A stretch of DNA of 64,000 nucleotides from contig CAZDDE010000002.1 of assembly GCA_964504205.1 (NCBI GenBank), positions 11,505 to 75,504 on the forward strand, given 5' to 3'. The position numbers were made by a program, and so were the translations under genes. Under the pieces are notes generated by a model, which saw only the letters and a program-made list of their open reading frames with translations, searched no databases and was not told the origin of the DNA. Positions 804 to 20,597 of this stretch are shown here, in pieces. The stretch is from an uncultured Candidatus Saccharibacteria bacterium (GTDB taxonomy: Bacteria; Patescibacteriota; Minisyncoccia; Spechtbacterales; HO2-43-30). Position 1 is the stretch's first letter. Every line of letters starts with the position of its first letter.

Positions 804-852
804 ACAAGAATGATTTTATCGCGATAGTAATTTTTTATTACAGCCATTGTTT

Positions 853-1968: not shown

Positions 1969-1974
1969 ACGTGC

Positions 1975-3839: not shown

Positions 3840-3844
3840 AAAAT

Positions 3845-5625: not shown

Positions 5626-6566
5626 TTTTGTAAGATATTTACAGGGTCTTCTCGTGCTATTTCAAGACAATTTGGGTTGATTTTTTCCCCATTAGGCGGG
5701 ACCATATTTGATCGAAATCCACATACTATACCAATGTTTGATAAAATTTTCAAGGTGACTTTACTATACGAATTGAGGGGGTGCGACATCGCAACAATTT
5801 TTTTATTGCAGATTCTTTTAATATGCTCAAAGTTTTTTACATATTCATCGAGCTGTTTTTTGCGGGAGAGTTTTACAATCCGGAAGGGATGATTGTACGA
5901 ATGCAGTCCCACGCAATGCCCCTTCGCGCTTATATTTTTAAGATCACGGTTGGTAAACCACAAACCTTTAGCTATTTGAGAAATATTGGCGCGTTTATTG
6001 TGCATCATCTTACCCATTATATTTTCAAATTTTTTTTGAGATGACAGTTCGTTGCGGATAAATCTATATTTTAAGTCGTTCGTTGAATAAAAAGGGAATA
6101 ATCTTTGTGTGGCGCGGGAATACTTTTTAAATTTTTGTTCATTGAGTTGCGCAAGGATCGCTTTGTCGCAATTACTAAAAAAAGTATTGAAAAATTCATT
6201 GATATCCTTAAAGTATTTTGCCGAAAAGTAGCTATAAATTTCAGATTTTACCAATCCCTTTTCAAATACTGAAGAGTAGATAAACCAAAATGCTTTTATG
6301 CTGTATTTCTCAAGAATGGGGAGACATATTTCATATTGGCATTTAAGGCCGTCATCAAAAGTTATGCAGATATCTTGGGCGTTTAGTTTGTTATGTTTTA
6401 GCTTATAGAGCCATTCGTCGGCCGAAAGAATATTTTTCAAGCCCACGCAATGAAGTATGTATTCAAACTCTCTGTCGGTGATAGAACCTTGGCCCAGGCC
6501 CGATGAGATTGCGCGGTGCACGCGATGAAACATTAAGCCGTGCGGGAATTGGACGGAGTTTATCAT
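5604..6566 (-). CDS. Polysaccharide deacetylase (CE4/NodB-like) family protein
   Basis: ITFDDG motif and overall length; start overlaps the upstream gene. Confidence 0.5.
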   Translation of the reverse strand: MINSVQFPHGLMFHRVHRAISSGLGQGSITDREFEYILHCVGLKNILSADEWLYKLKHNKLNAQDICITFDDGLKCQYEICLPILEKYSIKAFWFIYSSVFEKGLVKSEIYSYFSAKYFKDINEFFNTFFSNCDKAILAQLNEQKFKKYSRATQRLFPFYSTNDLKYRFIRNELSSQKKFENIMGKMMHNKRANISQIAKGLWFTNRDLKNISAKGHCVGLHSYNHPFRIVKLSRKKQLDEYVKNFEHIKRICNKKIVAMSHPLNSYSKVTLKILSNIGIVCGFRSNMVPPNGEKINPNCLEIAREDPVNILQKCKDKKF

Positions 6567-7786
6567 TTTTTGTAGGCGATATAATCAACGTGCCTGACGC
6601 CGTTGGCTCCGCGGAAGAGATGTTTTGCTTTTTTGATATACGTATGTACTTTGTCTAAATTCTTGTCTTCCACGGCGTCCAGAACTCCTTTCGCTTCCCG
6701 CATCAATTCATTCATTCGTTTGACAGTATATGCAGTCAGATTTAGATTTGCCAAGTCGCTCAGGTATTCATTAACCCTTTTTTTTACAATGGTACTCTCA
6801 ATTAAGGAATCCGCGCGGCAATTGGACATATAATTAACCAAAGAAGACCAGCTTTCCGAAATCTCGGACAATGGCTTTAAGATTTTTGGAACCTCAACGG
6901 CGTCATCATATTGGTGCATCAGCCAGAGGGCCTCGGCGAACACGCCGGTTTGCTTTAGTGACTGCGGTTGAAACTTTGGTTTATGGTGGGCAGAATCTGA
7001 AAATACCGGAAAAAAAATGGGTGGGTAGGAGGAGTAGAAAACCAGGTTATTTTTATCAAACCATTGCAATACTTCTTCTACTGATGGGTCATTTTGCTGC
7101 TGAACGACCCAGCGATCAAAGATAATCGCCCGCCGCGTCCGGGGAACAAATCTTTGACTGCGATCGATGTCCTCTTTAAACAGGCGCTCTGCTATCTCAA
7201 CCATTTTATTGGGAGTGTCGGCAAATCTATAGATGATGTATCGTTGCAGCATATTTTGGAATCCTCCAGCTTTGTTCGGATCTCCAAAAATTATATAGCC
7301 GCCCGGTTTCAAAAACGATGCGATCTTTGAAAATAATCCTTCTTTATCGTCGGTATGCGACAAAACTCCCCGGCAATGAACGATGTCATATTTTTTATTT
7401 GTCTTGTAGTCAAAAAGAGATGAATTAAAGAAGTGGTGTTGATTATAATTATTGGTGTATTTTTGAAAGACCTCTTTGGCGATCTGGATGGCCTTGTGAT
7501 TCATGTCAACCAGTGTGCAGCGTGCTCCCCAATTCGCGAGATACACTGTGTTTTCTCCTGTTCCAGCGCCGCAATCAAGCAAAGTGCGGTCCTGAAACAT
7601 GGGGGGAGGAAATTTTAGCAAGTCGCGGTAGAGGTACTCCGCATTCGCTGCCCATTCTTTATATTCGTTTTCCGATTTGTCCGAAAAATATATGGAAGGA
7701 ATTTCCTCCTCGAAGGTTGCAAGTACTGACGTCTCAACCGCCTTGATATGCTTTGTCCTAGTTTGTGTTTTAGCCGCGTGTTTCAT
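6563..7786 (-). CDS. Class I SAM-dependent methyltransferase with a long C-terminal extension
   Basis: LLDCGAGTGENTVYLA glycine-rich SAM motif I, followed by an acidic motif II. Confidence 0.6.
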   Translation of the reverse strand: MKHAAKTQTRTKHIKAVETSVLATFEEEIPSIYFSDKSENEYKEWAANAEYLYRDLLKFPPPMFQDRTLLDCGAGTGENTVYLANWGARCTLVDMNHKAIQIAKEVFQKYTNNYNQHHFFNSSLFDYKTNKKYDIVHCRGVLSHTDDKEGLFSKIASFLKPGGYIIFGDPNKAGGFQNMLQRYIIYRFADTPNKMVEIAERLFKEDIDRSQRFVPRTRRAIIFDRWVVQQQNDPSVEEVLQWFDKNNLVFYSSYPPIFFPVFSDSAHHKPKFQPQSLKQTGVFAEALWLMHQYDDAVEVPKILKPLSEISESWSSLVNYMSNCRADSLIESTIVKKRVNEYLSDLANLNLTAYTVKRMNELMREAKGVLDAVEDKNLDKVHTYIKKAKHLFRGANGVRHVDYIAYKK

Positions 7787-7798
7787 AATTGTTATGGA

Positions 7799-8983
7799 TT
7801 AATCGAAGTAACTTTCCAACTTGCTGTCCCGCACTGTGTCTAGTGTAGCGCAATGTATTCCTCCGCCTTGAGTGTAAATATGACGCATTCTTACGGGTAT
7901 CACTGTAATTTTATGCTGTTCAAGCACACGAATAAGGTTTGTCTGGCGCTCATCCGCAATGACTGTTTTTTGATCTAACGATAATAGATTCATTCCAACC
8001 CACGGCGAAGCTGTTAATTCCAGATTTGTTTCAAATCCTAAGGCTTGTATTTTTTTCGCTATTGGATCTCTAACTTCTTTTTGGAATTTTATTTCATGTT
8101 CCGTTACCGGGGCTACATCCGCAAACCATATCTTGTCCCACTTGTTAAACATTTTTGGCAGGTTCTTTTCATTTGCCCGTATGCTGTTTACCAATACAAG
8201 GCCGGGTCTTAAGCACATTAATGTTGAATCAATATGGCTAGATCGGTATATTTTTTCAGTGGTGTGCACTTTGTACTCATCGCCCAAGACATGCTGTAGC
8301 CACTTTGCTGCCAGATAATTCCCAGACGAAGAGACAAGGTAGAGAAGGTCTTTGCCCATTCTCAATACACTGGCGGCTTCAAATAAAATTTCGTTTTCAG
8401 TTACTTTATGCAGTTTTTCTATTCGGCCATCTGTGAGTTGTTGATAGCGAATATCCTCTTCTGTAAGCTTTCTTGCGTTGTGATCTCGATAGTAGGGAAT
8501 TATAACATCTCCGGTAAGTTTTGGTTTGGGGCCGCATATCCAGCGAAACCCTTTTTGCATGTATTGATACCATATCGGATAGAGAGCCGTAGCTTCAAAG
8601 TATCTGCTTTTGAGCATGGATGGGCTCTCGACCACAGTATCGCCAATAACCAAATGTAAGTCGCGAACATTGTAAATGTTATTTCCGGTGGAATGCCAAA
8701 AAGGAGTGGCATACATTTTTGAAATATCGTGCACGCTGGGCCGGTACACTTTGGCGCCATATTGCCGAAGCGCTTCGCACAGGCCGGTAAGATCTTCGTT
8801 TATTTCGTCCAGAAACCACTTTGGATAGGCCTTTCTCGCGAGCGTATAGGCCTTTTTTATTACTGATTCTGGGGCGGGTTTCGGCTTTGACCAAGTTAAA
8901 ACTGCCATAGTCCCTTCGGCCGTTCCGACGATGACTTCCCGAAGTTTATCCCATTCATTATGGCTATTGATTCTACTTGCCAT
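7799..8983 (-). CDS. Amidinotransferase (AGAT/StrB-like, guanidino-group-modifying-enzyme superfamily)
   Basis: C-terminal GGGIHCATLD active-site cysteine motif and HIDSTLMCLRPGLVLV core match glycine/inosamine amidinotransferases. Confidence 0.65.
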   Translation of the reverse strand: MASRINSHNEWDKLREVIVGTAEGTMAVLTWSKPKPAPESVIKKAYTLARKAYPKWFLDEINEDLTGLCEALRQYGAKVYRPSVHDISKMYATPFWHSTGNNIYNVRDLHLVIGDTVVESPSMLKSRYFEATALYPIWYQYMQKGFRWICGPKPKLTGDVIIPYYRDHNARKLTEEDIRYQQLTDGRIEKLHKVTENEILFEAASVLRMGKDLLYLVSSSGNYLAAKWLQHVLGDEYKVHTTEKIYRSSHIDSTLMCLRPGLVLVNSIRANEKNLPKMFNKWDKIWFADVAPVTEHEIKFQKEVRDPIAKKIQALGFETNLELTASPWVGMNLLSLDQKTVIADERQTNLIRVLEQHKITVIPVRMRHIYTQGGGIHCATLDTVRDSKLESYFD

Positions 8984-9041: not shown

Positions 9042-11540
9042 ATGTTTACTAGACATTTCTCAAAAGAAGTTATTTTGATTTCCCTTTTCTTTGTGGTCTT
9101 GGTTTGCGCCGGTATTTTCATGCATTACACGGGTTATACCTTTTTTGCAGTTGGCGAGTTGGGGCGCTATCAACCATGGCGCGACTATATTGAAGGCGGC
9201 TCCTGCCCCCTGCGTTCCGGAGACGATTTGTATGAGCATGATTTTATTTCAAGGGAACTGACATATCTTCGAGACAACCCATACCAACAAACATATTCGG
9301 AAAGAATAATGAGCGGCTACCCTATTCGCGATTCATATTTGGCCAATCAGTATACTGCCTTTAATTTTCTTAACAAATTTTTGCCAGCCCCTTCCAGCGT
9401 TAATTTTTCCGCTCTTTTGATGCTCTTTCTTAGTTTTACGCTCGGGTATTTTATCGCGCGCAGTTTAAATTTTAAGTATTACTATGCCGCGCTTCTTGGA
9501 ATTTTATCTATAACCCTTCAGTACGCGGGTCTCTTTGAGGCGTGGAACGCCGTTCTGATCGGATATGGTTTTGTAATCCTCGGGCTCATTTTGTTCTATC
9601 GGCATGATCGCGTCTACTGTTTTGTAATTCTTTCAATGTTGGGCGCTCTGCTTATCTTCCTATCTAGTATCTATCAATTTTACCTCTATACTGCGATCAA
9701 CCTCATGCTGTTGAGTTTGTTTTATTTTTCACTGGCACGCAAAAGGAAATTTTTGGTAATGTGGCTTGCGCTCATTGTTATTTTCGTAATTTCCGCGATG
9801 CTAGTCAATTTTTCAATGACGAGCCATTACGAACAACTTTCTTCTTCGCAGAAAATCAGTCATGACGTCGGTCTTGGGGAGTTAATTAAAAGGAAGATGT
9901 TTGCCACCGACCCTATTTCATGGATATGGGGGGGCGTCTCAACTCATACCAAGGTAATAAAACATATTTTGGGGGTAGAAGCCGGAGAGGAGTTCCTGAC
10001 ACTTATCCAAAATCGCGGAGTCCAAACGCAAGGGGCGGCCTATCTCGTCCTGATGGGTATTGGGCTTTATCTCTTATTTCACAAGTCCAAGCAGTACGTT
10101 TTCGTGATGCTTTTTTGGATTTTGTACGCAATGGGCATCTCACACCTCGCTTTTGTCTTTATATTTGGCGAGCCATTTTTGAGCGAAACATCAATTCCAG
10201 CGCCGTTAGTTGTGCTTATCTTGGGTAGTTTTGCGGTGATTTATGCCATAAAAGAACTTTTGGATCAACGTGTCAAGTTAAGCCATACCGCGAGAATTAT
10301 TGTTTTTGGGGGTGTCGGTGTCATTTTACTTGCTTCTGGTTCCATGCTGATTTGGGATGCGCTAGCTCATAAGCGGGTCCTGCTCGGAGTCATTTTTACA
10401 TTCCTTAGTGCGATCCTTCTTCTCCTTACGGTAAAAATTTTTACAGGAGGAAACAGAGTCGCTCCGCAACAGAAATTTTTATTTGCGGCGCTGATTGCCG
10501 TGGCGATAATGTTTCCAACCGGGGCGAAATTATTTCTATGCTTTAAGCCGGCCACTCTGGTTATGAACCGTTCACAGTTTTACTTTCCGCAAACAAAGTT
10601 TCAAGAAGCGATTGCGGAGAACCTGGATATTGCGCGTGTTGGGATGATTCAAACGTCCAGGGAAAAAAAAGACACACTTTTGCAGAACCTTCCCGTTTGG
10701 TTGGGGTTACCAACGCTAACCGGATACCGCAACACCATTTTGAAGGAATACTTTGATTTATATATGTATCATAAGATTCTGATAGAGAATGGCGAATCAA
10801 ACTCCGGAAAGTTATTTGAGGAATTTAGAACAAAAGTGGATTATGTGACTAATAAGTTGAGCGCGTTTGAAGTTAGCAATTCTAATTTTTTCCTTCCTCC
10901 TTGGACACAGCGTTACTTCGCCCTCCACGGCGTTAATGGCATCATCGGTCCGGCGGATTTGATCATAAGAAATGAGGATTGGGAGCTTGCCGCAAGAGCA
11001 GACGGACTCTCTCTCTGGAAGGATAGGAAAAAGCCGCACGATTTCTTTTTCTCGCGAGAATCCATAGTTATTCCAGACGACGTTTTCCGTATGGCATACA
11101 TTCTGAATAGTCCCGACTTTGATATGCAAAAACAGGTTGTGTTGAAGGAAGGATTTGGGGCTAAATACAGCACAACCGCAACTTCTACTTTTTCTTTTGA
11201 AATTTTAGAAAAAACAGATGGCTATCGCCTCATCGGCGCCGATCTTGACACGCAAGGTATTCTCACCATTCCAGTTACATACAATAAGCATTGGGAGGCA
11301 AAATTCTTGAGCGACAATGGCACAGCAACAGCTTTAAAAACAATGCATGCAAACCATGCTTTTCTAGGTGTTGCGCTTCCTCCCGGACAAGGAAAGGTTG
11401 AGTTAATATACAACGATAAGCCAAAATTACAGAATGGGATTGTAGCGGGAGGAGGTGTTATACTCTTGGCGGTATTAATACTTTTTACTAAGGTTTATAG
11501 CCGTCGCGTCAAGACTAAACTTAATGAGCTTGCTGAATAA
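9042..11540 (+). CDS. Large polytopic membrane protein with a C-terminal extracytoplasmic domain (YfhO/GT-C-like, putative glycosyltransferase)
   Basis: More than ten hydrophobic helices, then a ~300 aa soluble domain; the last 5 codons and the stop are supplied by the repeat element. Confidence 0.4.
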   Translation: MFTRHFSKEVILISLFFVVLVCAGIFMHYTGYTFFAVGELGRYQPWRDYIEGGSCPLRSGDDLYEHDFISRELTYLRDNPYQQTYSERIMSGYPIRDSYLANQYTAFNFLNKFLPAPSSVNFSALLMLFLSFTLGYFIARSLNFKYYYAALLGILSITLQYAGLFEAWNAVLIGYGFVILGLILFYRHDRVYCFVILSMLGALLIFLSSIYQFYLYTAINLMLLSLFYFSLARKRKFLVMWLALIVIFVISAMLVNFSMTSHYEQLSSSQKISHDVGLGELIKRKMFATDPISWIWGGVSTHTKVIKHILGVEAGEEFLTLIQNRGVQTQGAAYLVLMGIGLYLLFHKSKQYVFVMLFWILYAMGISHLAFVFIFGEPFLSETSIPAPLVVLILGSFAVIYAIKELLDQRVKLSHTARIIVFGGVGVILLASGSMLIWDALAHKRVLLGVIFTFLSAILLLLTVKIFTGGNRVAPQQKFLFAALIAVAIMFPTGAKLFLCFKPATLVMNRSQFYFPQTKFQEAIAENLDIARVGMIQTSREKKDTLLQNLPVWLGLPTLTGYRNTILKEYFDLYMYHKILIENGESNSGKLFEEFRTKVDYVTNKLSAFEVSNSNFFLPPWTQRYFALHGVNGIIGPADLIIRNEDWELAARADGLSLWKDRKKPHDFFFSRESIVIPDDVFRMAYILNSPDFDMQKQVVLKEGFGAKYSTTATSTFSFEILEKTDGYRLIGADLDTQGILTIPVTYNKHWEAKFLSDNGTATALKTMHANHAFLGVALPPGQGKVELIYNDKPKLQNGIVAGGGVILLAVLILFTKVYSRRVKTKLNELAE

Positions 11541-11671
11541 TTGCTTCTGGCTCATTCTCGCCCCGCCAGCGCGGGGCTGCGAGGCTCGGCCTGTTTTGCT
11601 CCGACTGCGGTCGGAGACCATGCCAAAACAGGCCTCAAATCCGCCAGAAGTAATTATTCAGCAAGCTCATT
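11523..11671 (+). mobile_element. MITE-like palindromic repeat element, copy 1 (~29 bp terminal inverted repeats, internal stem-loops)
   Basis: Left end aatgagcttgctgaataattgcttctggc and right end gccagaagtaattattcagcaagctcatt are reverse complements with one mismatch; near-identical copy at 14622-14769. Confidence 0.75.
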
Positions 11672-13815
11672 GGATCGTGAAGAGCGTAATTAACTGGGGA
11701 AAAAAGTACAATATAGACCTGCAAAAATTACTGCTTAATAGGTGGTTTTTGTTGATTTTAGCGATTAAAATTGTCGCCAGTTTTCTTTTTGCTTCAGATT
11801 TTATGCTGAAGGGATTTGTGCCGTTTGTAAATTACTTTGTATCTACCGGTTTTGATAATCCCTACAATTTTTTTTATAACCTGGGACAGCCAGAAGCATT
11901 TCCGTATCCGCCCGCCATGTTATATATACTTTCTGTCGCAAGAATTTTTTTCTATCCGGTCCTGATAATTGACTGGCCGACAGTAACCTTTGCTCACTTG
12001 TTCATCATGCGTATCCCTATTTTATTGGCTGATATTGCAATATATTTAATACTTTGTAAGTGGTTGGAAACGAAGGAGAAAAAAGTGCTGTTGTATTATT
12101 GGGCTTCGCCAGTCCTCTTTTTTATCAATTATTTTCACGGGCAACTAGACGTCATTCCCACTGCCTTACTTTTTATATCTCTACTCTTTTTGTTTGCCAA
12201 AAGGGAAGCTACAGCATTTATAATACTGGGTTTGGGCATTGTGGCCAAGACGCACTTATTGGCAGTATTACCGTTTTACTTTATCTACTTAATGATCAAT
12301 AGATATCCCGTTCAAAAAGTTATCTTGTATTCCATGTTGCCGCTCGGTGTCTTTTTTGCATTCGCGTGGCCGTATTTGGCATCGAGCGGATTTACGCAGA
12401 GTGTCTTTGGTACCGAAGAAGCCAACAAATTGTTTCTAGTGTTTGTTCCATATCTTCATAATGACTTGCGGCTTCTTTTAGCGCCGGCGGCAATTTTGAT
12501 TCTTTTCTTTAACTTCTTTTCGTATAAGAAATTAAACAAGGATGCCTTCTTGTTAATTCTTGGACTGTTGTTCACTATGCTCGTCTTGTTTGTACCCCCA
12601 ATGCCCGGCTGGTTTTATTGGTCCATTCCATTTTTCGTGTACTTTTTTGCAAAGTACAAAGAAATTCCAAAGTTTAGTTTTTGGTTCTTGAGCATTGCCT
12701 ATATGCTGTACTTTATATTTAGTAAGGATGCTAAAATTTTTTCTAGCTTCGAACTATTAAACCCCGGTTTCATAACCACCGTTAGTCCATTTACGACGCT
12801 TCACGCGCTGGGTATCAATATGGACATACTTGTTAATGTTATTTTTACCCTGCTGATAGCGGCTCTCGTCATGAACGCAGTGTGGATTTATCGTATGGGC
12901 GTGCGCAGTAATTTAGAATATAAGGTCACGGATAGCCCGACTTTAATTGGAATTGGAGGAGATTCTGGAGCCGGGAAAAACACCCTGGCCAATCTAATCG
13001 TCCAACTTTTTGGAAAGGATAATGCCGTTTGCGTTGAGGGCGATGACGCGCACAAATGGGAGCGGAATCATGAAAGTTGGGAAAAATACACGCATTTGAA
13101 TCCCAAAAGCAATTTGTTGCACCGCGATTTGCGGCAAACGTCGGAATTGAAAATGGGTGAAGCAATTAAGCGACAGCTTTACGATCATTCATCCGGCCAT
13201 TTCACATTACCAAAGGATGTCGAGCCGAGTAAGATTGTTCTATATACCGGTTTGCACCCGTTTTATCTGAGTAAAATGCGCAAGGCTTTTGATATAAAAA
13301 TATATGTGGATCCAAATGAAGATCTGCGCAAGCATTGGAAAATAATGCGCGACAAAAAATACCGAGGGTACTCCAGAGAAGAGGTAATTAGACAACTAGA
13401 ATCTAGAGAGGAGGATTCCGGAAAATATATACGTCCACAACGGGAATTTGCCGATATAATTATCACGCTCATGCCAAAAGGCGAGTTAATTGAAGATCAA
13501 GAGCCTGGCTTGTGGATGCGTATCATATGCGATAATTCATTACACGTTGATCCGTTTGTCGAGCAACTTTCAAGTTGCGGTACCGTGGATGTGCGGCATA
13601 GATACGAAGATGATTTGCATAGGCAATGCATTGAGTTCGACGGCCGTATTTCTGCCGAGGAAATAAACCAGCTTGCGCATGGCCTTATCCCTTACTTCGA
13701 GGAACTTACCGATGGCAAGCACAAATGGGCGGAGGATTTAGACGGCATACGCCAGTTGTTCATACTTTATTACTTTAGCGAATTGCGAAAGTCTAATCAA
13801 ACATATAATGCATGA
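11524..13815 (+). CDS. Fusion protein: N-terminal polytopic membrane domain (PIG-M/DUF2029-like GT-C mannosyltransferase-like) plus C-terminal phosphoribulokinase/uridine-kinase-family P-loop kinase domain
   Basis: C-terminus GIGGDSGAGKNTLA (P-loop), LYDHSSG, LYTGLHPF and DIKIYVDPNEDLRKHWKIMRDKKYRGYSREEVIRQLESRE track PRK-family motifs. The N-terminal 400 aa are hydrophobic with a GFDNPYNFF loop motif. The annotated N-terminus is repeat-encoded, so the true start is uncertain. Confidence 0.6.
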   Translation: MSLLNNCFWLILAPPARGCEARPVLLRLRSETMPKQASNPPEVIIQQAHWIVKSVINWGKKYNIDLQKLLLNRWFLLILAIKIVASFLFASDFMLKGFVPFVNYFVSTGFDNPYNFFYNLGQPEAFPYPPAMLYILSVARIFFYPVLIIDWPTVTFAHLFIMRIPILLADIAIYLILCKWLETKEKKVLLYYWASPVLFFINYFHGQLDVIPTALLFISLLFLFAKREATAFIILGLGIVAKTHLLAVLPFYFIYLMINRYPVQKVILYSMLPLGVFFAFAWPYLASSGFTQSVFGTEEANKLFLVFVPYLHNDLRLLLAPAAILILFFNFFSYKKLNKDAFLLILGLLFTMLVLFVPPMPGWFYWSIPFFVYFFAKYKEIPKFSFWFLSIAYMLYFIFSKDAKIFSSFELLNPGFITTVSPFTTLHALGINMDILVNVIFTLLIAALVMNAVWIYRMGVRSNLEYKVTDSPTLIGIGGDSGAGKNTLANLIVQLFGKDNAVCVEGDDAHKWERNHESWEKYTHLNPKSNLLHRDLRQTSELKMGEAIKRQLYDHSSGHFTLPKDVEPSKIVLYTGLHPFYLSKMRKAFDIKIYVDPNEDLRKHWKIMRDKKYRGYSREEVIRQLESREEDSGKYIRPQREFADIIITLMPKGELIEDQEPGLWMRIICDNSLHVDPFVEQLSSCGTVDVRHRYEDDLHRQCIEFDGRISAEEINQLAHGLIPYFEELTDGKHKWAEDLDGIRQLFILYYFSELRKSNQTYNA

Positions 13816-14639
13816 AAGGAGAAATTAAAAAGCTGATATTTATTTCGCGCAAAGTTGGATGTTTGCCCGAACTTGTGCAGGGGGGAGGGGGGAATACTTC
13901 AGTTAAGGATGCCAGAGGAAAGATGTATATAAAAGCTTCGGGTATAGCACTGTCTGATATGACACTAAAGAGGGGCTTCGCTATTGTTGGTGATGAGGGG
14001 AAAGTGGTTGATGCAGTATCGGGAGAGCGCCCATCTATGGAAGTGTCTATGCATCTCTATTTGCCTAAATATGTTATTCATACGCATTCGGTGCATGTAA
14101 ACATTTTTACATGCATTAAAAATGGCCGGCGTCATCTCATGGATTTTTTTAAAGACGAGAAGCCGCTGTATATTTCTTATAAAAATCCTGGCGAGGAACT
14201 TGCAGCAGAGATTAAAGAACAAGTGCATATCTATAAAAGGAAGCATCTTAGCGATCCAAAGATTATTTTTTTAGAGAATCATGGTCTAATAACATGCGGA
14301 GTTGATTCAAAGCGAACACTAGAACTGACGATGCGAGTTAATGCGGCAATCAAAAAGCATTTAACGGAATCAATAGCAAATTTTAAATTATTCACCTCAA
14401 CGCAAGAAGTTTTTGAGAGGCCGAAGCGGTGTTTATTTCCCGACATGGCCGTATTTCAGACGACACCAATGACGAAATCATCCAAAGAGATTCTTGCAGC
14501 ACACGAGTATGTGTTATATGGAATAAGGAAATTAGGTGCCACCCCCCGGTATCTAAAGAGCGCCGATGTCAAATACATTCAAAACATGGAAAGCGAAAAG
14601 CATCGCATGAAAGTGGCAATGAATGGGCTTGCTGAATAA
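13812..14639 (+). CDS. Class II aldolase/adducin-family protein (fuculose-phosphate aldolase / ribulose-5-phosphate 4-epimerase-like)
   Basis: GGGGNTS…SMEVSMH…HTHS metal-binding His pattern of the class II aldolase N-terminal domain; the stop codon lies inside repeat copy 2. Confidence 0.6.
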   Translation: MKGEIKKLIFISRKVGCLPELVQGGGGNTSVKDARGKMYIKASGIALSDMTLKRGFAIVGDEGKVVDAVSGERPSMEVSMHLYLPKYVIHTHSVHVNIFTCIKNGRRHLMDFFKDEKPLYISYKNPGEELAAEIKEQVHIYKRKHLSDPKIIFLENHGLITCGVDSKRTLELTMRVNAAIKKHLTESIANFKLFTSTQEVFERPKRCLFPDMAVFQTTPMTKSSKEILAAHEYVLYGIRKLGATPRYLKSADVKYIQNMESEKHRMKVAMNGLAE

Positions 14640-14769
14640 TTGCTTCTGGCTCATTCTCGCCCCGCCAGCGCGGGGCTGCGAGGCTCGGCCTGTTTTGCTC
14701 CGACTGCGGTCGGAGACCATGCCAAAACAGGCCTCAAATCCGCCAGAAGCAATTATTCAGCAAGCTCAT
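14622..14769 (+). mobile_element. MITE-like palindromic repeat element, copy 2
   Basis: Near-identical to 11523-11671 with the same terminal inverted repeats; supplies stop codons and in-frame leaders for the flanking genes. Confidence 0.75.
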
Positions 14770-14781
14770 GAATCATTCATT

Positions 14782-15555
14782 ATGCAAATAATTATTCCAA
14801 TGGCCGGGCAAGGGGAGAGATTTGCCGAAAAAGGCTACAAGGATATCAAGCCGCTGATTAAAGTTGGCGATAAACCAATTATTGAATATATCACTGAGAT
14901 GTTTCCGGGGGAAACAAATTTTTTGTTTATTTGCAATCAAGAACACCTTGACAGCACTACTCTTGGAAAAACGCTGCATAAGTTAATGCCCAAAGGCAGA
15001 GTGGTCGGCATTTCTGGCCACCAACACGGACCAGTTTGGAGCGTCTTGGCAGCAATGACTTATATCAACGATGAAGAACCCGCCATTGTGAATTATTGCG
15101 ATTTTAACTGTATATGGGATTACGAAAATTTTAAGCGCACTGTTGTTGACAAAGATTGCCATGGCGCAATTGCCTGTTATCGCGGTTTTCATCCCCATCT
15201 ACTTGGGCCCAATCTGTATGCTTCCTGTAGGGTAGATGCAAGTAACTATTTACAAGAAATACGCGAGAAATATTCCTTTAGCGAGAATAAAATGCACACA
15301 TATCAGTCTTCTGGCACATACTATTTTAAGCGCGGAGATTTAATAAAAAAATATTTTCAAGCATTGGTCAATCAAGATATAAATGTCAACAAGGAATACT
15401 ATGTAAGTTTGGTCTATAACTTGATGCTCAAAGATAATCTTCAAACCTATATTTATGAAATAGACAAGTTTTGCCAATGGGGAACGCCGCAGGACCTGGA
15501 GGAATTTCTCTACTGGCTAGATTATTTTAAAAAATCCTATGAAAAGCACAGTTAA
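14782..15555 (+). CDS. Sugar-phosphate nucleotidyltransferase (NTP_transferase/GT-A-like, LicC/TarI/IspD-like)
   Basis: IIPMAGQGERF N-terminal nucleotide-binding motif. The track ORF starts at 14623 inside the repeat; the ATG at 14782 is preferred. Confidence 0.7.
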   Translation: MQIIIPMAGQGERFAEKGYKDIKPLIKVGDKPIIEYITEMFPGETNFLFICNQEHLDSTTLGKTLHKLMPKGRVVGISGHQHGPVWSVLAAMTYINDEEPAIVNYCDFNCIWDYENFKRTVVDKDCHGAIACYRGFHPHLLGPNLYASCRVDASNYLQEIREKYSFSENKMHTYQSSGTYYFKRGDLIKKYFQALVNQDINVNKEYYVSLVYNLMLKDNLQTYIYEIDKFCQWGTPQDLEEFLYWLDYFKKSYEKHS

Positions 15556-16315
15556 TTTGATTCCTATGGCCGGCGCGGGAGCACGTTTTTTTAAGGAGGG
15601 CTTTCGTGATCCAAAATCCCTCATAGATATAGATGGAAAGCCAATGGTTATCCGGGCGACAGAATGTTTACCCGACGCAGATAGATGGATTTTTGTTTGT
15701 AGAAAGGAGCATTTGGACAATTATCCGCTCGCGGTAACACTGAAAAAGGCATATCGTGGATGCACAATTCTTGACATTGATTATCTTAGCGAGGGCCAAG
15801 CTTCAACATGCCTCATGGCCGAGAAGTATATAGATTTAGATAACCCTTTATTAATTTCAGCATGCGATAATGGGATTGTATATAACACGCCCAAGTTAGA
15901 TACGATGATACGGGACAAAGCGGTCGATGCCTTGATTTTCACCTTTAGAAATAATGCGATTGTAGCGCGTAACCCCAAGATGTATGGTTGGGTTAAGGCC
16001 GATGATAAGCAAAGAGTCGAGCGAGTGTCGGTGAAAGTGCCGATTAGCGATAATCCAATGAGTGACCATGCCGTGGTTGGGACATTCTGGTTTCGCAAGG
16101 GGGAGTATTTTATTCATGCCGCAAAAGAGATGATTGCAAAAAATACGAGGATTAACAACGAATTTTATGTTGATGAATGTTTAAACAATGCCGTCGCACG
16201 CGGACTGAATGTGAAAGTGTTTGAGGTGGATAAATATATATGCTGGGGTACCCCAGATGAGTTGAGAACCTTTAACTACTGGCGCGAGTATTTTAATATC
16301 CATAAATTTTATTGA
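15539..16315 (+). CDS. Sugar-phosphate nucleotidyltransferase, tandem paralog
   Basis: LIPMAGAGARF motif; the C-terminus (KYICWGTPDELRTFNYW) parallels the upstream paralog. Confidence 0.7.
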   Translation: MKSTVNLIPMAGAGARFFKEGFRDPKSLIDIDGKPMVIRATECLPDADRWIFVCRKEHLDNYPLAVTLKKAYRGCTILDIDYLSEGQASTCLMAEKYIDLDNPLLISACDNGIVYNTPKLDTMIRDKAVDALIFTFRNNAIVARNPKMYGWVKADDKQRVERVSVKVPISDNPMSDHAVVGTFWFRKGEYFIHAAKEMIAKNTRINNEFYVDECLNNAVARGLNVKVFEVDKYICWGTPDELRTFNYWREYFNIHKFY

Positions 16316-16318
16316 GCC

Positions 16319-16897
16319 ATGATAAAAATCGTCCATCGCGTTAATTCTACTAGGGAACTTACGAAGATTCCGGTTAGCTATGGTGTGGAAGTGGATATCC
16401 GCGGGTATGGTGATGAGCTTGTGCTTAACCATGAGCCTCTTGCCGGAGGAGAAAATTTCGAAGGGTATTTAAAAGAATATGGTCACGCTTTTGCTATATT
16501 CAACATTAAAGAAGCAGGTATAGAACAGCGCGTTATTGACTTAGCCGGGGAATTTAATATAACGAATTTTTTTCTCTTAGATGTTGAATTTCCATTTATA
16601 TATAAAGCCACACGATGCGGATTTAGGAGTATAGCTATAAGGTATAGTGAGGATGAATGTATTGACAGCGCATTGTTATATAAAAGTAGGGTTGATTGGG
16701 TCTGGATTGACACAAATACTCGCTTGCCACTAGATAGGAAGGTAGTTGAGCAGTTGCGCGGTATCAAAACGTGCCTAGTTTCCCCTGACAGGTGGGGAAG
16801 GCCAAACGATATATTAAAGTACAAACAACAAATGAAGGCCCTAAACTTTGAGCCGACAGCAGTCATGGCCGGGAAAGATGTCATACATTTGTGGTAG
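16319..16897 (+). CDS. Glycerophosphodiester-phosphodiesterase-like (GDPD/PLC-like TIM-barrel) protein, short form
   Basis: IVHRV…VEVDIR…DELVLNHE parallels the GDPD HR…E.D…HD catalytic arrangement. Confidence 0.4.
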   Translation: MIKIVHRVNSTRELTKIPVSYGVEVDIRGYGDELVLNHEPLAGGENFEGYLKEYGHAFAIFNIKEAGIEQRVIDLAGEFNITNFFLLDVEFPFIYKATRCGFRSIAIRYSEDECIDSALLYKSRVDWVWIDTNTRLPLDRKVVEQLRGIKTCLVSPDRWGRPNDILKYKQQMKALNFEPTAVMAGKDVIHLW

Positions 16898-16913
16898 TGT
16901 AAGGTCATAACCT

Positions 16914-17627
16914 ATGCCCGCGTTATCTATCATAGTGCCTTGTTATAACGAGGCAGAAAACATCCTGCTTATTTTAGAAAAGTTTTCACGTGTGCTGAAG
17001 GGGCTTTCCGCGGAATTGATTTTAGTAAATAATGGCTCAACTGATGAATCCGGCGAGATCTTGAGAGGTGAGCTGAAAAATCCGTTATATTGCTTTGCGC
17101 GTGTTGTCAGTATCGCAAAAAATATCGGCTACGGGCATGGTATCATGACTGGCTTGCGCGAGGCGAAGGGTGATGTTTTGGCATGGACACACGCGGATTT
17201 GCAAACTGACCCCGCGGATGTTATACGGGCTTATCAAAAATTTCGCGAGCTGGAAAAAAAAGATGCTAATATTTTAATCAAGGGGCGACGCCTTAATCGC
17301 AGACTTGGCGAAAGATTTTTTACCTTTGGGATGGCGTGTCTTGCAAGTTTTGTTTTGGGGGAGGCGCTATATGACATCAATGCTCAGCCGAAAATGTTTT
17401 CCAAATCATTTTTGCTCAAGATGAAAAATCCGCCGGACGATTTTTCACTCGATCTTTATCTGATGTATCTTGCAAAACATTTTAATTACAAAACATACAC
17501 CATACCCGTGCATTTTGGCGAGAGGATATACGGCGAATCAAAATCGGCGGCTAATTTTAAATCGCGTTGCCGCACAATTATGCGCACGTTCAAATACACG
17601 TTTGCTTTACGTTCCAGAATGCGATGA
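16914..17627 (+). CDS. Glycosyltransferase family 2 (polyprenol-phosphate/DPM1-like)
   Basis: SIIVPCYNEAENI…VNNGSTDESGEIL GT2 signature. Confidence 0.8.
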   Translation: MPALSIIVPCYNEAENILLILEKFSRVLKGLSAELILVNNGSTDESGEILRGELKNPLYCFARVVSIAKNIGYGHGIMTGLREAKGDVLAWTHADLQTDPADVIRAYQKFRELEKKDANILIKGRRLNRRLGERFFTFGMACLASFVLGEALYDINAQPKMFSKSFLLKMKNPPDDFSLDLYLMYLAKHFNYKTYTIPVHFGERIYGESKSAANFKSRCRTIMRTFKYTFALRSRMR

Positions 17628-19016
17628 ACTCTCAATAATAATGGATTTAAGGAAAATATCTCTGGCCTCAATTTGTCTGTTCCTATAGAGATCTTTACTC
17701 TGCCGCAATTTTTCGAGGTGATCAATCAGCTCCTCTTTGCTATTCACGATATGCGGAAAATATGGCGCCGAGAAATGTTTCGGCACAATTTCAGACATTA
17801 CTTCTTTGCAGGTTATGATGGGAATGCCAAGCGACAGCATTTGCAGTGCCATGGTTGTGCTTGTGTTCATGAAGACTCCAATATCCATTTCCTGGAGCTG
17901 TTCAATGCGCCAGCGCTTCTTCACATGAATGAGATTACTGTACTTTTGGCACATCTTATCATAATCAGAATGCCAATCTAAGAGTTTATGCGATTTTATG
18001 CAGATAGTCATTTTTTTTTCGAGAGCGAATTGGCAAATTGACTCTATGTAATTAACAAGTTTATCTGGTTCTCCGAACGGCACTTCAAGATTTTCTTCCA
18101 TGGCAGTAACAATGACTATGTGCGACATCCGGCGTCCCGCATATTGCAAGGGAGGTTGGACTGCCCATTGCGGAGCGCGATATATAAGTTTTGGTCTTTT
18201 TACGCAAAATTCATCGGTATATTTTTGTTGATAAGTTGTCCAGATGTAGTATTCTTCCGGTTCAAAATAGCGGTTTTTATTTACGACAAGAGGGGAGCCG
18301 TGCGGGTAAGCAATTTGCGCTAAGCCATAAAAACGACTCCATAAGATAAGAGAGTTGCCGATGACATTATCCAGATCCGAGGACATTACTCTGCCGATAC
18401 TAGGATTTGCCGCAACCCTTTGCACCATGGCGCGAATGCGGGCAGAGGCAAAAGCATAGTAGATAAAATATCTCAGAAAAGAGGTAATTGAACATTGTAG
18501 TGCGCAGATATTTTTAAGAATGTTGTAAATTGAGAACAATGTTGTAAAATTTTGCAGGAATAAGGGAAAGGATTTAATATCATGCGCGCGAGATTTTTTG
18601 ACGACTATAGTAATCCTTCTTTCGCGATCTAAATCAGCAAGATCAAAAATTTTTTCAAGGTCTATGCCGGATCCCAGCACCGCGATTCCTTGTGCGTTTT
18701 TTTGAGGAGAAGCATTGGAGCGAAAATAATCGCGGTCTATATTCCAAAAGTTAACCCCGCCGCCAAAGGCGGTGGGGTTCATGGACAGAATGGCATTTCG
18801 GCCAAAGCTCCATTCATTAAAATTTCTGGGAATTAATCTGCTTTCGGATTTTAGCGCGCTTGCGCCCCCCGCTCCTTTCCATATCAGCGCAAACAAAAAA
18901 AATACAAAATCGCGCTTGATGGTGCCAAGAAAATAGCGGGCCTCTTTGCCTTTTAGCCGCAAGAAAATTGCGCCATACAACGAGAGGGCAGATTCGTAGG
19001 ACTCAAGTTTGGTCAT
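17607..19016 (-). CDS. Hypothetical polymer transferase (TagF/CDP-glycerol glycerophosphotransferase-like or capsule-synthesis-like), weak similarity
   Basis: C-terminal region ICIKSHKLL…MDIGVFMNTSTTMALQMLSLGIPIIT loosely resembles the TagF HP…TDYSS core. Confidence 0.3.
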   Translation of the reverse strand: MTKLESYESALSLYGAIFLRLKGKEARYFLGTIKRDFVFFLFALIWKGAGGASALKSESRLIPRNFNEWSFGRNAILSMNPTAFGGGVNFWNIDRDYFRSNASPQKNAQGIAVLGSGIDLEKIFDLADLDRERRITIVVKKSRAHDIKSFPLFLQNFTTLFSIYNILKNICALQCSITSFLRYFIYYAFASARIRAMVQRVAANPSIGRVMSSDLDNVIGNSLILWSRFYGLAQIAYPHGSPLVVNKNRYFEPEEYYIWTTYQQKYTDEFCVKRPKLIYRAPQWAVQPPLQYAGRRMSHIVIVTAMEENLEVPFGEPDKLVNYIESICQFALEKKMTICIKSHKLLDWHSDYDKMCQKYSNLIHVKKRWRIEQLQEMDIGVFMNTSTTMALQMLSLGIPIITCKEVMSEIVPKHFSAPYFPHIVNSKEELIDHLEKLRQSKDLYRNRQIEARDIFLKSIIIESSSHSGT

Positions 19017-19642
19017 ACAAATTTTTCAAGTTCAGTTAAGTCGCGGATTTTTGCCTTTATTTCCATATCCTTGAATGGATCGACGTCAGTTATTCGGCCG
19101 ATAAAACCGATGCGCGCCTCTTTTGCTCCTTGGTAATCATCAATAGAGTCGCCAATCATAATTACTTCATCCGGAGAAAAATTGTATTTCCCCAGTATTT
19201 TTTTGCACATTTCGCCCTTTGAAGCGGGCGAGCCGAATACTTCAACGAAGTATTGATCAATCCCTTTATCTTTTGCAACGCTGCGCATTTCTTCCTCGGG
19301 AGTGCCCGAGGCGATAAACAAAGAAAATTCGCTGTGATATTTTTGCAGAAATTCTTTAGCGCCTTGAACAAAGGGGCATTTTACGATGCGCTCATAAACA
19401 TACCCGGCAAATTTATTGCTTAGTTCTTCGCCGATTTTTTCATTATAGGGTTGATGCAGGATTTCCTGATATACAATTCTGAATTTTTCAAAACGCGGCA
19501 TACTGCCGTGGGCTTTATGCAGATTTCTAATATCTTGGGCGAACTTTGGGTAATCGCCAAACACAAAAACAAAGGCATCGCCCTTGATATCCATTGATTC
19601 TGAAATCACTCCGTCAAAATCAAAAATTATTGCCTTAAGCAT
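19013..19642 (-). CDS. HAD-superfamily phosphatase (beta-phosphoglucomutase-like subfamily)
   Basis: AIIFDFDGV motif I and IGDSIDDYQGA motif IV. Likely start at MLKAIIFDFDG; the longer track ORF overlaps the upstream gene. Confidence 0.7.
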   Translation of the reverse strand: MLKAIIFDFDGVISESMDIKGDAFVFVFGDYPKFAQDIRNLHKAHGSMPRFEKFRIVYQEILHQPYNEKIGEELSNKFAGYVYERIVKCPFVQGAKEFLQKYHSEFSLFIASGTPEEEMRSVAKDKGIDQYFVEVFGSPASKGEMCKKILGKYNFSPDEVIMIGDSIDDYQGAKEARIGFIGRITDVDPFKDMEIKAKIRDLTELEKFV

Positions 19643-20597
19643 TGGATTGCAGTTTGTGTTTAAAAACACAATTAAAAGTGCCGCCTCTCTTATCTTTAGA
19701 TATGAGCGCAAAATTTTTTCGTTCAAAAAAGTCATAAACATCCTTGCTTTGGGGCAATGATTCATCTATTTCTATCAAAACTGATTGAAGGCGCGGGTAA
19801 GAAAAGGTCGCTTCTCCTCCGACAAGAACATCTAATTCATATCCATCCACATCAAGCTTGATGTGGTTTGGCTGCGGTAAATTAAAAGTTTTTACAAAGT
19901 CATCAAGCTTATAACATAAGATTTTTTGGGAAAACTCCTCGCCATGAACCGTTGGCCCACAAAGCACATCGGGCTTTTCTTGTCCAAATTTATGAGCGGC
20001 GCCGCCGGGGGTAATATCCGAGTAATTTAGGGGAGCGAGTTCGGTAATACGGCCAAGCGCAACCTGGAAAGGAACGATGCTTTTTGAAGCATCGTTTAAA
20101 AAGATATTCTTGCACAAAGCCGCAAATGTGGAAAAACTCGGTTCGAAAGCATACACTTTACATGCCGCGCTAGTATGCGCCCAGGCCACAAAGGAGTAAG
20201 CGCCAACATTAGCGCCGATGTCATAAAAAACGTCTCCCGGCTTTACTGTACTTTCAATCCAGGCAACAGTTTCTGGTTCTTTCTTTAGAGCGCGAAGGTT
20301 TCTGATCTGTCGATATGAGCCGACATCCATCGCTATGCGGCCACCGGAGCAATCCAGATTACCGATGACATTGATCGTTTCTTTGAACGCAATTTTCAGC
20401 GCATTAGAAAGAAGAGATACGCCGCCATTGTTGAGGCCGATTGTTTTACCAGCATGCCTTAAAAGAAAAAAGTTGTCATAAACTCGTTTTAAAAAATCCT
20501 GCCAAACTTTAGGTAATAAACGAATTAAGAATCTAAAAAATTTAGAAGGCATGACATTAAAGATATTTGGCAATATTTGTAAGGACAATAGAATCAA
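19635..20597 (-). CDS. FkbM-family SAM-dependent methyltransferase
   Basis: FYDIGANVGAYSF…AFEPS pattern typical of the FkbM family. Confidence 0.7.
   Translation of the reverse strand: MILLSLQILPNIFNVMPSKFFRFLIRLLPKVWQDFLKRVYDNFFLLRHAGKTIGLNNGGVSLLSNALKIAFKETINVIGNLDCSGGRIAMDVGSYRQIRNLRALKKEPETVAWIESTVKPGDVFYDIGANVGAYSFVAWAHTSAACKVYAFEPSFSTFAALCKNIFLNDASKSIVPFQVALGRITELAPLNYSDITPGGAAHKFGQEKPDVLCGPTVHGEEFSQKILCYKLDDFVKTFNLPQPNHIKLDVDGYELDVLVGGEATFSYPRLQSVLIEIDESLPQSKDVYDFFERKNFALISKDKRGGTFNCVFKHKLQSNA

Follow-up and report, generated by a model that had tools for sequence, protein, structure and literature searches.

Phosphoribulokinase (PRK) counts as an indicator of the Calvin cycle, while RuBP (ribulose 1,5-bisphosphate) is seen as a metabolite belonging to carbon fixation or to archaeal nucleoside salvage. 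The locus analysed here, a 64-kb stretch of DNA called the window in its whole length, raises the question why such a kinase should be joined in one protein to a membrane domain with the fold of GT-C glycosyltransferases. The answer which we consider reasonably probable is that the fusion serves as signature gene for a conserved cassette which has spread horizontally and which makes an unusual sugar and installs it on surface glycans. The fusion and its cassette point to an unstudied route from a pentose phosphate metabolite to cell-surface sugar decoration.

Architecture of the fusion protein

The fusion gene extends from 11677 to 13815 on the plus strand and encodes 712 amino acids from its likeliest start. 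Its C-terminal part (12925 to 13815) is a full-length, cytoplasmic type II PRK domain which contains the Walker A motif GIGGDSGAGKNT and the whole PRK fold including the C-terminal sheet. It scored 131 with the Pfam model of the PRK/Udk superfamily (PF00485, cut-off 22) and 217.8 bits with the NCBIfam PRK model NF005655, which is under the curated cut-off of 236. Arginine 463, tyrosine 502, histidine 504, arginine 558, aspartate 559, and arginine 563 match R64, Y103, H105, R159, D160, and R164 of CrPRK, which serve in binding of the ribulose-5-phosphate (Ru5P) phosphate and in catalysis, and among 79 members their conservation is 95% or higher. The assignment to the PRK family beyond a generic P-loop protein, as made in the original prediction, was borne out. 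From its sequence the domain is proposed to convert Ru5P to RuBP with ATP. Closest to it are the known type II PRKs (the cyanobacterial and plant enzymes, Methanospirillum hungatei PRK 5b3f, and the "cyanobacteria-specific PRK" 9qko/9qkn). In contrast to these, the kinase of the fusion is attached to a membrane domain of 415 amino acids, and its gene lies not beside RuBisCO or CBB genes but in glycan clusters, in organisms which are not autotrophs (CPR, DPANN, Bacteroidota, and others).

The membrane domain (11677 to 12921) has about 12 transmembrane helices in an N-in/C-in orientation. Its polytopic membrane fold is common to solved GT-C enzymes, in agreement with the PIG-M/DUF2029-like GT-C domain that had been suggested. 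Sequence searches of the domain against Pfam, NCBIfam, and PDB yielded nothing, and the models of GT87/DUF2029 (PimE-like) and GT50 (PIG-M) did not match the window protein at E ≤ 10; weak GT87 matches occurred in 12 of 33 relatives, the best at 1e-6. Judged by these searches, the protein should not be filed under GT87 or GT50. Invariant in the family are K31, F75-P76-Y77, M81, D119, P145, D158, P161, K191, P199, P308, and W315. The catalytic aspartate or glutamate of GT-C enzymes usually sits in the first outer loop. In this loop as modelled (residues 38–104) no aspartate or glutamate is conserved at 90% or more, and the invariant D119 in the outer half of the second helix and D158 in the loop between helices three and four are candidates for the catalytic acids. 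Closest to the membrane domain are the GT-C enzymes with polyprenyl-phosphate-monosaccharide donors (PIG-M/Gpi14 of GT50, ALG6, ALG3, PimE of GT87, and ArnT). The window protein differs from them in that it falls by sequence into no CAZy or Pfam GT-C family, lacks an invariant acidic residue in the first outer loop, and carries a C-terminal kinase. We know of no characterised GT-C enzyme with a C-terminal kinase, nor was one found in the literature searched.

A survey of related genomes, as had been suggested, found the fusion to recur widely, in at least 559 species genomes of CPR, DPANN, Bacteroidota, Bacillota, and Proteobacteria. The GT-C subfamily to which it belongs is nearly always joined to a PRK. 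Automatic annotation names the homologues "uridine kinase", "zeta toxin family", "DUF2029", or "GT87 family". No paper describing the fusion, the cassette, or a pentulose pathway turned up in the literature searches, and a paper on RuBisCO and PRK in CPR bacteria does not mention the fusion. The view that the fusion is undescribed holds for the literature searched; in sequence databases it is not unusual.

The conserved cassette

Six or seven partner genes accompany the fusion, arranged as (GtrA)–GT-C/PRK–class II aldolase–GDPD-fold protein–two nucleotidyltransferases–GT2, and a HAD protein is encoded in addition. Partners were counted over 85 related loci. As gene fusions made single-linkage clustering of the locus reading frames collapse into one cluster, profile searches were done for each family instead. 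The parts keep strict synteny and their surroundings are always a glycan cluster. Natural fusions elsewhere (GT-C with PRK and aldolase, NT1 with NT2, both nucleotidyltransferases with GT2, and GtrA with GT-C and PRK) show that the parts belong together.

The class II aldolase-family enzyme (13812 to 14639, plus strand; FucA/RhaD-like) has a conserved C-terminal extension. Its metal ligands E77, H90, H92, and H157 are conserved together with Y123 and the class II phosphate residues; to the ribulose-1-phosphate (Ru1P) aldolase model NF053831 it showed a weak match of 31.9 bits (cut-off 300). The enzyme adjoins the fusion gene in most loci and is fused to GT-C/PRK in locus L039; loci with full flanks which have no aldolase retain all other parts of the cassette. 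Two nucleotidyltransferases of distinct orthologous groups follow on the plus strand, NT1 (14782 to 15555, its true start being M54 of the reading frame 14623–15555) and NT2 (15539 to 16315). Both keep their catalytic motifs and show weak IspD/NTP_transf_3 signatures.

The next gene (16319 to 16897, plus strand) encodes a protein of 192 amino acids from an unnamed family, for which structure prediction, the only source of this assignment, gave a GDPD-type (PLC-like phosphodiesterase) TIM barrel. H6, R7, E24, D26, and H38 are conserved and correspond to the H-R...E-x-D...H catalytic set of GDPD. None of 17 members matched Pfam (PF03009 included), PDB yielded no sequence match, and comparison with true GDPD by hhalign remained insignificant with a probability of 1.3%. 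The last gene of the run encodes a GT2 glycosyltransferase of the polyprenyl-phosphate type (16914 to 17627, plus strand; ArnC/PpgS/Dpm-like). A GT2 of this type occurs in 70 of the 85 loci and a GtrA-family protein in 40, the latter also as an N-terminal fusion in relatives of about 840 amino acids; this lends indirect support to a lipid-phosphate-linked sugar as the putative donor for the GT-C domain. The cassette HAD, present in 60 loci, has as best match the haloarchaeal RuBP 5-phosphatase NF053830, at 180–188 bits and under the cut-off of 330. The idea of a glycan module fed by pentose phosphate, with a class II aldolase, two nucleotidyltransferases, a GDPD-like protein, GT2, and HAD, was supported.

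The copy in the window departs from this pattern. No GtrA-family small membrane protein is encoded in its 64 kb, and its HAD-superfamily phosphatase (19013 to 19765, minus strand; start probably at M42, about 19642) belongs to another subfamily than the RuBP-5-phosphatase-like HAD of the cassette, so that a HAD had been predicted correctly for the module but is here not of the cassette type. With neither present, this copy could be incomplete or function in another manner.

A proposed pathway

This analysis established which family or fold each part has, the conservation of active sites, the synteny, and the fusions; which substrates are used, in what order the steps run, and what the aldolase, the GDPD-like protein, and the second nucleotidyltransferase do is what we infer. 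The fusion would be a bifunctional membrane protein with a 12-helix GT-C domain acting at the outer face of the membrane and a last helix leading to the cytoplasmic PRK. The PRK domain would phosphorylate Ru5P, or a close pentulose-5-phosphate, to the 1,5-bisphosphate, from which the RuBP-5-phosphatase-related HAD would strip the 5-phosphate to leave Ru1P, a net shift of the phosphate from C5 to C1. The class II aldolase-type enzyme and then the GDPD-fold enzyme may tailor this intermediate, and both nucleotidyltransferases would take part in nucleotide activation. The ArnC/PpgS-like GT2 would put the sugar onto polyprenyl phosphate, GtrA would assist membrane crossing, and the GT-C domain, often together with other large polytopic proteins of the locus, would move the sugar to an outside acceptor.

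Several points count against this scheme, among them the PRK score under the curated cut-off, the absence of GtrA and of a cassette-type HAD from the window, the first outer loop devoid of an invariant acidic residue, and the weak similarity of the aldolase to Ru1P aldolase. A FucA-type aldolase is moreover expected to cut Ru1P to DHAP and glycolaldehyde, as in haloarchaea, which would leave no sugar donor, and a ketose 1-phosphate is not anomeric, so that a conventional NDP-glycosyl donor needs extra, guessed chemistry. Cleavage to DHAP and glycolaldehyde, an MtnB-like dehydration, and formation of an aldose 1-phosphate were considered, and none was favoured over C4 epimerisation or tailoring. 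A more specific version, which we regard as rather doubtful, is that the cassette installs a RuBP-derived ketopentofuranose (ribulo- or xylulofuranose) via an NDP-2-pentulofuranose donor. Here PRK and HAD phosphatase would yield the furanose-forming Ru1P, the aldolase-type enzyme would epimerise C4 by retro-aldol cleavage and re-addition, and NT1 would produce NDP-1-ribulose. With the help of the adjacent anomeric 2-OH, the GDPD-fold enzyme would then make a 1,2-cyclic phosphate, which it would open to the 2-phosphate, and from this NT2 could produce the true glycosyl donor for GT2 and GT-C. If true, this would be a new ketose activation and the first role of RuBP beyond carbon fixation and nucleoside salvage, and would account for the constant presence of two active nucleotidyltransferases and a GDPD-like enzyme.

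Comparison with known systems and alternative readings

The haloarchaeal non-carboxylating pentose bisphosphate pathway consists of RuBP 5-phosphatase and Ru1P aldolase (PMC9700705). It resembles the cassette in a HAD which is probably of one family with the cassette HAD (188 bits, the best match in NCBIfam), a class II aldolase, and a co-encoded RuBP-forming enzyme, which would be PRK in the cassette but is R15P isomerase in haloarchaea; the cassette in addition lacks a glycolaldehyde reductase, its setting is biosynthetic instead of catabolic, and the HAD of the window is from another subfamily. The best match of the HAD, the weak match of the aldolase, and the common operon of HAD and FucA in haloarchaea could also mean that the cassette is a catabolic shunt, in which the membrane domain serves just as a sensor or anchor and both GT2 and the nucleotidyltransferases are unrelated neighbours. 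We consider this unlikely, as the GT-C domain to which the kinase is obligatorily fused is conserved and has invariant residues on the outer face, the fusions of both nucleotidyltransferases with GT2 and the strict synteny tie all parts together, loci devoid of the aldolase retain the rest, the context is always a glycan cluster, and a shunt of this kind would be of no evident use to organisms which possess the pentose phosphate pathway.

The proposed sugar-decoration cassette is a variant of three-component lipid-linked glycosylation. GtrA/GtrB/GtrC, ArnC/ArnEF/ArnT, CsbB/GtcA/YfhO, and PpgS/Rv3632/Rv3779 likewise co-encode a polyprenyl-P GT2, a GtrA-family protein, and a GT-C, and are likewise portable between lineages; the cassette adds a putative five-enzyme precursor pathway of its own, the first enzyme of which is fused to the GT-C. 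The window has a GtrB-like GT2 and GT-C co-encoded, but no GtrA. In the NDP-heptose route (GmhA, HddA/HldE kinase, GmhB HAD phosphatase, HddC/HldE nucleotidyltransferase) a terminal sugar phosphate is converted via the 1,ω-bisphosphate to the 1-phosphate and activated with a nucleotide, and in the mycobacterial decaprenyl-P-arabinose route GT-C enzymes use a lipid-linked donor derived from pentose phosphate. The likeness of these routes to the proposed pathway is one of logic only (for NDP-heptose synthesis, kinase, bisphosphate, HAD phosphatase); compared with both routes, the kinase, aldolase, and GDPD-like steps belong to unrelated enzyme families and the ketose 1-phosphate is not anomeric.

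A different product had originally been predicted, a teichoic-acid-like polymer made with a TagF-like transferase. The module would then supply a CDP-pentitol or CDP-ketopentose from which a polyol-phosphate chain is polymerised, in keeping with the IspD/NTP_transf_3 signatures, with the action of the GDPD fold on polyol-phosphodiesters, and with the precedent of pneumococcal CDP-xylulose and CDP-arabinitol. The supposed polymerase, a protein of 469 amino acids (17607 to 19016, minus strand), yielded no match to Glyphos_transf/TagF or anything else in Pfam, NCBIfam, or PDB at E ≤ 10 and is absent from the 85 related loci, so that a TagF-type enzyme was rejected. No pentitol reductase is present either, and the conserved transferases, an ArnC/PpgS-like GT2, GtrA, and GT-C, are those which typify polyprenyl-phosphate-monosaccharide decoration systems. 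A teichoic-acid-like product is improbable, and this part of the original prediction was not supported. Directly upstream of the fusion, on the plus strand, lies a gene for a polytopic membrane protein of 832 amino acids (9042 to 11540), which gave no Pfam, NCBIfam, or PDB sequence match and is not a conserved partner in the 85 loci; it is possibly a further lipid-donor-dependent transferase.

The obligatory tether of the kinase to the GT-C would be explained if its substrate were bound to the membrane, either polyprenol or the 5-OH of a polyprenyl-P-pentose, and the mycobacterial DPA route does have a lipid-linked 5-phosphopentose intermediate. We rate this as quite unlikely, since the sugar-phosphate binding set of soluble PRK is completely retained, CPR lineages fuse the aldolase to the C-terminus of the kinase, and the partner HAD resembles a strictly RuBP-specific phosphatase. 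An identity as uridine/cytidine kinase or zeta-toxin-like UDP-GlcNAc kinase, suggested by database names ("uridine kinase", "zeta toxin family protein") and by weak Zeta_toxin matches across the P-loop region, was considered and rejected as very unlikely.

In non-autotrophic bacteria and archaea by the hundreds, including CPR and DPANN symbionts with their reduced genomes, a probable surface glycosyltransferase is joined to a PRK whose active site is intact, and two cassette proteins, the membrane domain and the 192-amino-acid GDPD-fold protein, stand outside any named family. If the proposed flow is true, it would be a new portable route by which a lipid-linked glycosyl donor is derived from pentose phosphates, more than 1000 "hypothetical" proteins would gain a function, PRK homologues which confuse metabolic reconstructions of uncultivated lineages would be explained, and a surface decoration with a possible part in phage recognition or in the contact of episymbionts with their hosts would be identified. 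As several carriers are cultivable, for example Zeaxanthinibacter enoshimensis, Virgibacillus necropolis, and Acetobacter lovaniensis, the pathway is directly testable.

Limits of the gene and a repeat element

The most likely start of the fusion gene is GTG at 11677, the NCBI call starting at TTG 11752 and yielding 687 amino acids. Of the protein of 763 amino acids described originally, the single fusion gene stood and the length did not, because its first 49 codons are false and stem from a repeat. That a frameshift or mis-assembly had joined two genes, to which only this false N-terminal extension pointed, is extremely improbable and was ruled out, as the reading frame runs without interruption through both domains and full-length colinear homologues exist by the hundreds in independent assemblies, complete genomes included.

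The repeat is a MITE-like palindromic element which has no match in Rfam and occurs in two copies in the window. Copy 1 (11523 to 11670, 148 nucleotides, RNA fold of −94 kcal/mol) also contributes the final five codons of the upstream gene together with its stop; copy 2 (14622 to 14769), 99% identical to it, provides the final five codons of the class II aldolase gene.

Identity of the fusion protein

The open reading frame 11524-13815 (+) runs without interruption through a membrane glycosyltransferase-like (GT-C) domain and a C-terminal phosphoribulokinase (PRK) domain, and a word-indexed search yielded more than 437 full-length relatives of about 700 amino acids each, which confirmed the fusion of kinase and membrane domain that had been proposed. 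No publication on a GT-C/PRK fusion was found in a literature search. A scan with one genome per GTDB species located carriers in at least 559 species, including Patescibacteria/CPR and DPANN archaea, Gamma- and Alphaproteobacteria (with Rickettsiales and Acetobacter lovaniensis), Flavobacteriaceae (Zeaxanthinibacter, Maribacter), Paenibacillus, Virgibacillus, Omnitrophota, Bdellovibrionota, Acidobacteriota, Melainabacteria and Elusimicrobia. When the membrane domain alone was searched against 1.84 billion cluster representatives, 853 matches were obtained, 224 of them at E<=1e-30. Since nearly all of the best 150 of the 853 had the length of a fused protein (about 700 amino acids, about 830 with an additional GtrA, or 1058 with an aldolase), the kinase is almost always present in this GT-C subfamily; the few shorter matches among these 150 may be fragments or unfused copies.

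The names given to the fusion in databases vary ('uridine kinase', 'zeta toxin family', 'DUF2029', 'GT87 family'). Amino acids 474-652 of the open reading frame match the Pfam family PRK (PF00485) with an E value of 5.5e-38, and the NCBIfam phosphoribulokinase model NF005655 is matched at positions 4-266 of 326 with 217.8 bits, slightly below its curated cut-off of 236. Uridine-kinase NCBIfam models reached 78 bits at most. Uridine kinase and zeta toxin were both rejected as labels for the fusion. Residues R64, Y103, H105, R159, D160 and R164 of CrPRK hold the phosphate of ribulose-5-phosphate (Ru5P) or take part in catalysis (bioRxiv 10.1101/422709). Mapped via an alignment with Synechococcus PRK, they correspond to R463, Y502, H504, R558, D559 and R563 of the fusion, counted from GTG 11677, and each is at least 95% conserved among 79 family members. 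The two family matches together with the retained Ru5P site upheld the assignment of the C-terminal domain to the phosphoribulokinase family. Among solved structures, those nearest to the kinase domain are PDB 9qko/9qkn ("cyanobacteria-specific PRK"), released in 2026. These may belong to the divergent clade of PRK homologues which Jaffe et al. 2018 remarked had never been assayed, and the fused PRK family may be a sister to the clade of these structures.

The membrane domain of the window protein has no Pfam match, even at E<=10, and GT87 or GT50 as its family label was rejected on this ground. Among 33 relatives weak matches to GT87 (12), ALG6/8 (4) and ALG3 (4) were obtained, so the suggested resemblance to PIG-M/DUF2029 transferases was right as to fold. 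Modelled helices and the positive-inside rule yielded a topology of about 12 transmembrane helices with both termini inside, which would place the kinase domain in the cytoplasm. The invariant residues of the membrane domain include D119, D158, K191, FPY (75-77) and PPxPGWxxW. The catalytic residues of GT-C enzymes are usually located in the first outer loop; in this loop the family alignment contained no conserved acidic residue.

Start of the gene and a repeat element

An alignment of homologues showed that a start at GTG 11677, giving 712 amino acids, fits their N-termini. The start chosen by NCBI, TTG 11752 (687 amino acids), would truncate the first transmembrane helix. The length of 763 amino acids in the original prediction results from a false start, as the first 49 codons of the open reading frame are not genuine gene sequence and derive from a palindromic, MITE-like repeat of 148 nucleotides. 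Exactly two copies occur in the window (11523-11670 and 14622-14769), 99% identical and differing at 2 of the 148 positions, one of these in the second codon (GAG versus GGG). The repeat forms a perfect hairpin with terminal inverted repeats of about 34 nucleotides and an RNA folding energy of -94 kcal/mol, and had no match in an Rfam search. Both copies sit at gene junctions within the fusion operon, inserted in frame. As each opens with AAT-GRG-CTT-GCT-GAA-TAA in frame with the preceding gene, the upstream 832-amino-acid gene and the aldolase gene both take their final five codons and their stop from the repeat, and an ATG inside it yields spurious N-termini for the fusion and for the first nucleotidyltransferase.

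A conserved gene cassette

Gene neighbourhoods of three distant relatives and of 85 fetched loci were compared. A class II aldolase-family gene, usually immediately after the fusion, was present in 74-75 of the 85 loci, a pair of nucleotidyltransferases (NT1 and NT2) in 74, a small GT2 in 70, a 192-amino-acid GDPD-fold protein in 63-64, a cassette-specific HAD phosphatase, often immediately adjoining, in 60, and GtrA in 40, all of these counts being lower bounds because short contigs are common among the loci. The GDPD, nucleotidyltransferase, GT2 and HAD calls made for the neighbours proved right. The 832-amino-acid (+), amidinotransferase-like and FkbM genes of the window are not kept as partners in the 85 loci, and neither is the downstream 469-amino-acid gene (-), which had been read as TagF-like. 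Neither the TagF reading nor the teichoic-acid picture was upheld.

Several cassette members are naturally fused. A single protein of 1060 amino acids in Kaiserbacteria (locus L039) combines GT-C, PRK and Aldolase_II domains, and long open reading frames at two loci without a separate aldolase (L018, L033) suggest the same arrangement. Proteins of about 790 amino acids in Omnitrophota and Melainabacteria (L025, L084) unite NT1, NT2 and GT2, a 549-amino-acid protein of Maribacter unites two nucleotidyltransferases, and forms of about 840 amino acids carry GtrA in front of GT-C and PRK. NT1 and NT2 are separate orthologous groups; both retain the motifs GxGxRF…K, C-D and WG(T)PxD and therefore both look catalytically competent. 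The best named relatives of the GT2 are polyprenyl-phosphate glycosyltransferases (ArnC, PgfS, PpgS and dolichyl-phosphate hexose transferase).

A proposed pathway

Folds, active-site conservation, synteny and fusions are direct observations; the substrates and the order of the steps below are what we infer. The PRK domain in the cytoplasm and the cassette HAD would between them shift the phosphate of a pentulose phosphate from position C5 to C1. This intermediate would be tailored by the aldolase-type and GDPD-fold enzymes, and NT1 and NT2 would activate it with a nucleotide. GT2 would then transfer the activated sugar onto polyprenyl phosphate, GtrA would help in translocation of the lipid-linked sugar, and the GT-C domain would hand the sugar to an extracytoplasmic acceptor. 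By analogy, the fusion would work like the GT-C arm of a three-component decoration system of the GtrABC/ArnCT type with its own precursor pathway based on ribulose-1,5-bisphosphate (RuBP).

The best NCBIfam match of the cassette HAD is NF053830, RuBP 5-phosphatase, with 188 and 180 bits against a curated cut-off of 330 and 125 bits for the next-best family. The haloarchaeal RuBP 5-phosphatase has strict specificity for RuBP, from which it forms ribulose-1-phosphate (Ru1P) in cyclised form, and its gene adjoins that of a FucA-type Ru1P aldolase (PMC9700705). In the window aldolase-family protein (13812-14639) the GGGGNTS phosphate loop is retained, as are a conserved tyrosine and the metal ligands E77, H90, H92 and H157; its match to Ru1P aldolase is weak (32 bits). 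A PRK with a full Ru5P site, an HAD resembling RuBP 5-phosphatase and an aldolase of the ketose-1-phosphate type together support a route Ru5P -> RuBP -> Ru1P, and to judge from these sequences the predicted pentose-phosphate feed of the module appears right. In NDP-heptose synthesis a kinase forms a bisphosphate, which is cut by an HAD phosphatase before nucleotide activation, and the cassette would share this logic. The best named relatives of the cassette aldolase are the aldolase halves of bifunctional rhamnulose-1-phosphate aldolase/dehydrogenases. Its C-terminus is extended by a conserved stretch of 90-170 amino acids (P210-D211, M259, E262, R265) which is absent from FucA and AraD and is also seen in a 358-amino-acid relative (L005:3963-5039).

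Two Bacteroidota loci with full flanks (L048, L056) are without class II aldolase and 192-amino-acid protein and keep HAD, NT1, NT2 and GT2. As loci without the aldolase keep the remaining cassette, the enzyme is argued to tailor Ru1P, not to destroy it, for example by C4 epimerisation via retro-aldol cleavage and re-addition. At L048 a canonical Pfam GDPD gene (12114-12875, E 2e-26) directly follows the fusion, and homologous open reading frames of about 254 amino acids occupy this place at L045, L050 and L056; L045 and L050 were grouped with L048 and L056 as a Bacteroidota variant of the cassette.

The precursor branch possibly holds new chemistry. In one scheme, which we consider unlikely, NT1 would act on the 1-phosphate, the GDPD-fold enzyme would migrate the phosphate to the anomeric O2 via a 1,2-cyclic phosphate, and NT2 would form an NDP-ketofuranose; it accounts for all parts, including the two nucleotidyltransferases and the GDPD-fold enzyme.

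A TylF/macrocin-type O-methyltransferase occurs near the NT and GT2 genes at L011:15395-16159 and ten other loci, in L011 and L017 between them. Its presence inside 11 cassettes fits a sugar intermediate and points to O-methylation of the sugar in some lineages.

Further large polytopic proteins (400-1070 amino acids, at least 8 hydrophobic segments) occur in or beside the cassette in 56 of 83 loci; those checked belong to no Pfam family or match PMT_2 weakly. Examples are window 9042-11540, L001:12902-14704 and L001:16223-17845 (PMT_2-like in L001), and four open reading frames at L009. Mycobacterial arabinan synthesis is a precedent for several GT-C-type transferases sharing one lipid-linked donor, and by this analogy the extra proteins, including the 832-amino-acid protein of the window, may be more such transferases using the same donor as the fusion.

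The window copy and its surroundings

GtrA was looked for in the 64-kb window and none was found. The only HAD in the window (19013-19765, minus strand) is of a subfamily different from the cassette HAD and probably belongs to the neighbouring operon. The operon contains the two repeat insertions and its six core reading frames are all intact; this copy may rely on non-orthologous helpers or may be partly decayed.

The fusion is surrounded by a surface-glycan island that takes up about 47 of the window's 64 kb and contains a nonulosonic-acid cluster, a Bac_transf initiating transferase, a Wzy_C/TPR protein, an ABC exporter and sugar-modifying enzymes. The nonulosonic-acid cluster (pseudaminic/legionaminic-type; 42-8983, minus strand) comprises a DegT aminotransferase, a formyltransferase-like protein, a NeuB synthase, a GFO/MocA oxidoreductase, a CMP-sugar synthetase (CTP_transf_3), a polysaccharide deacetylase and a methyltransferase. 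An amidinotransferase/ADI-fold protein with marginal family matches lies at 7799-8983. The polytopic protein with a Wzy_C/O-antigen-ligase domain and TPR repeats (39307-41598) has 763 amino acids, by coincidence the length of the fusion open reading frame, and is followed by a 583-amino-acid protein without family match. The window comes from a CPR/Patescibacteria genome, since its SecA (50209-52770) shares 69-75% identity with that of Candidatus Spechtbacteria/Spechtbacterales.
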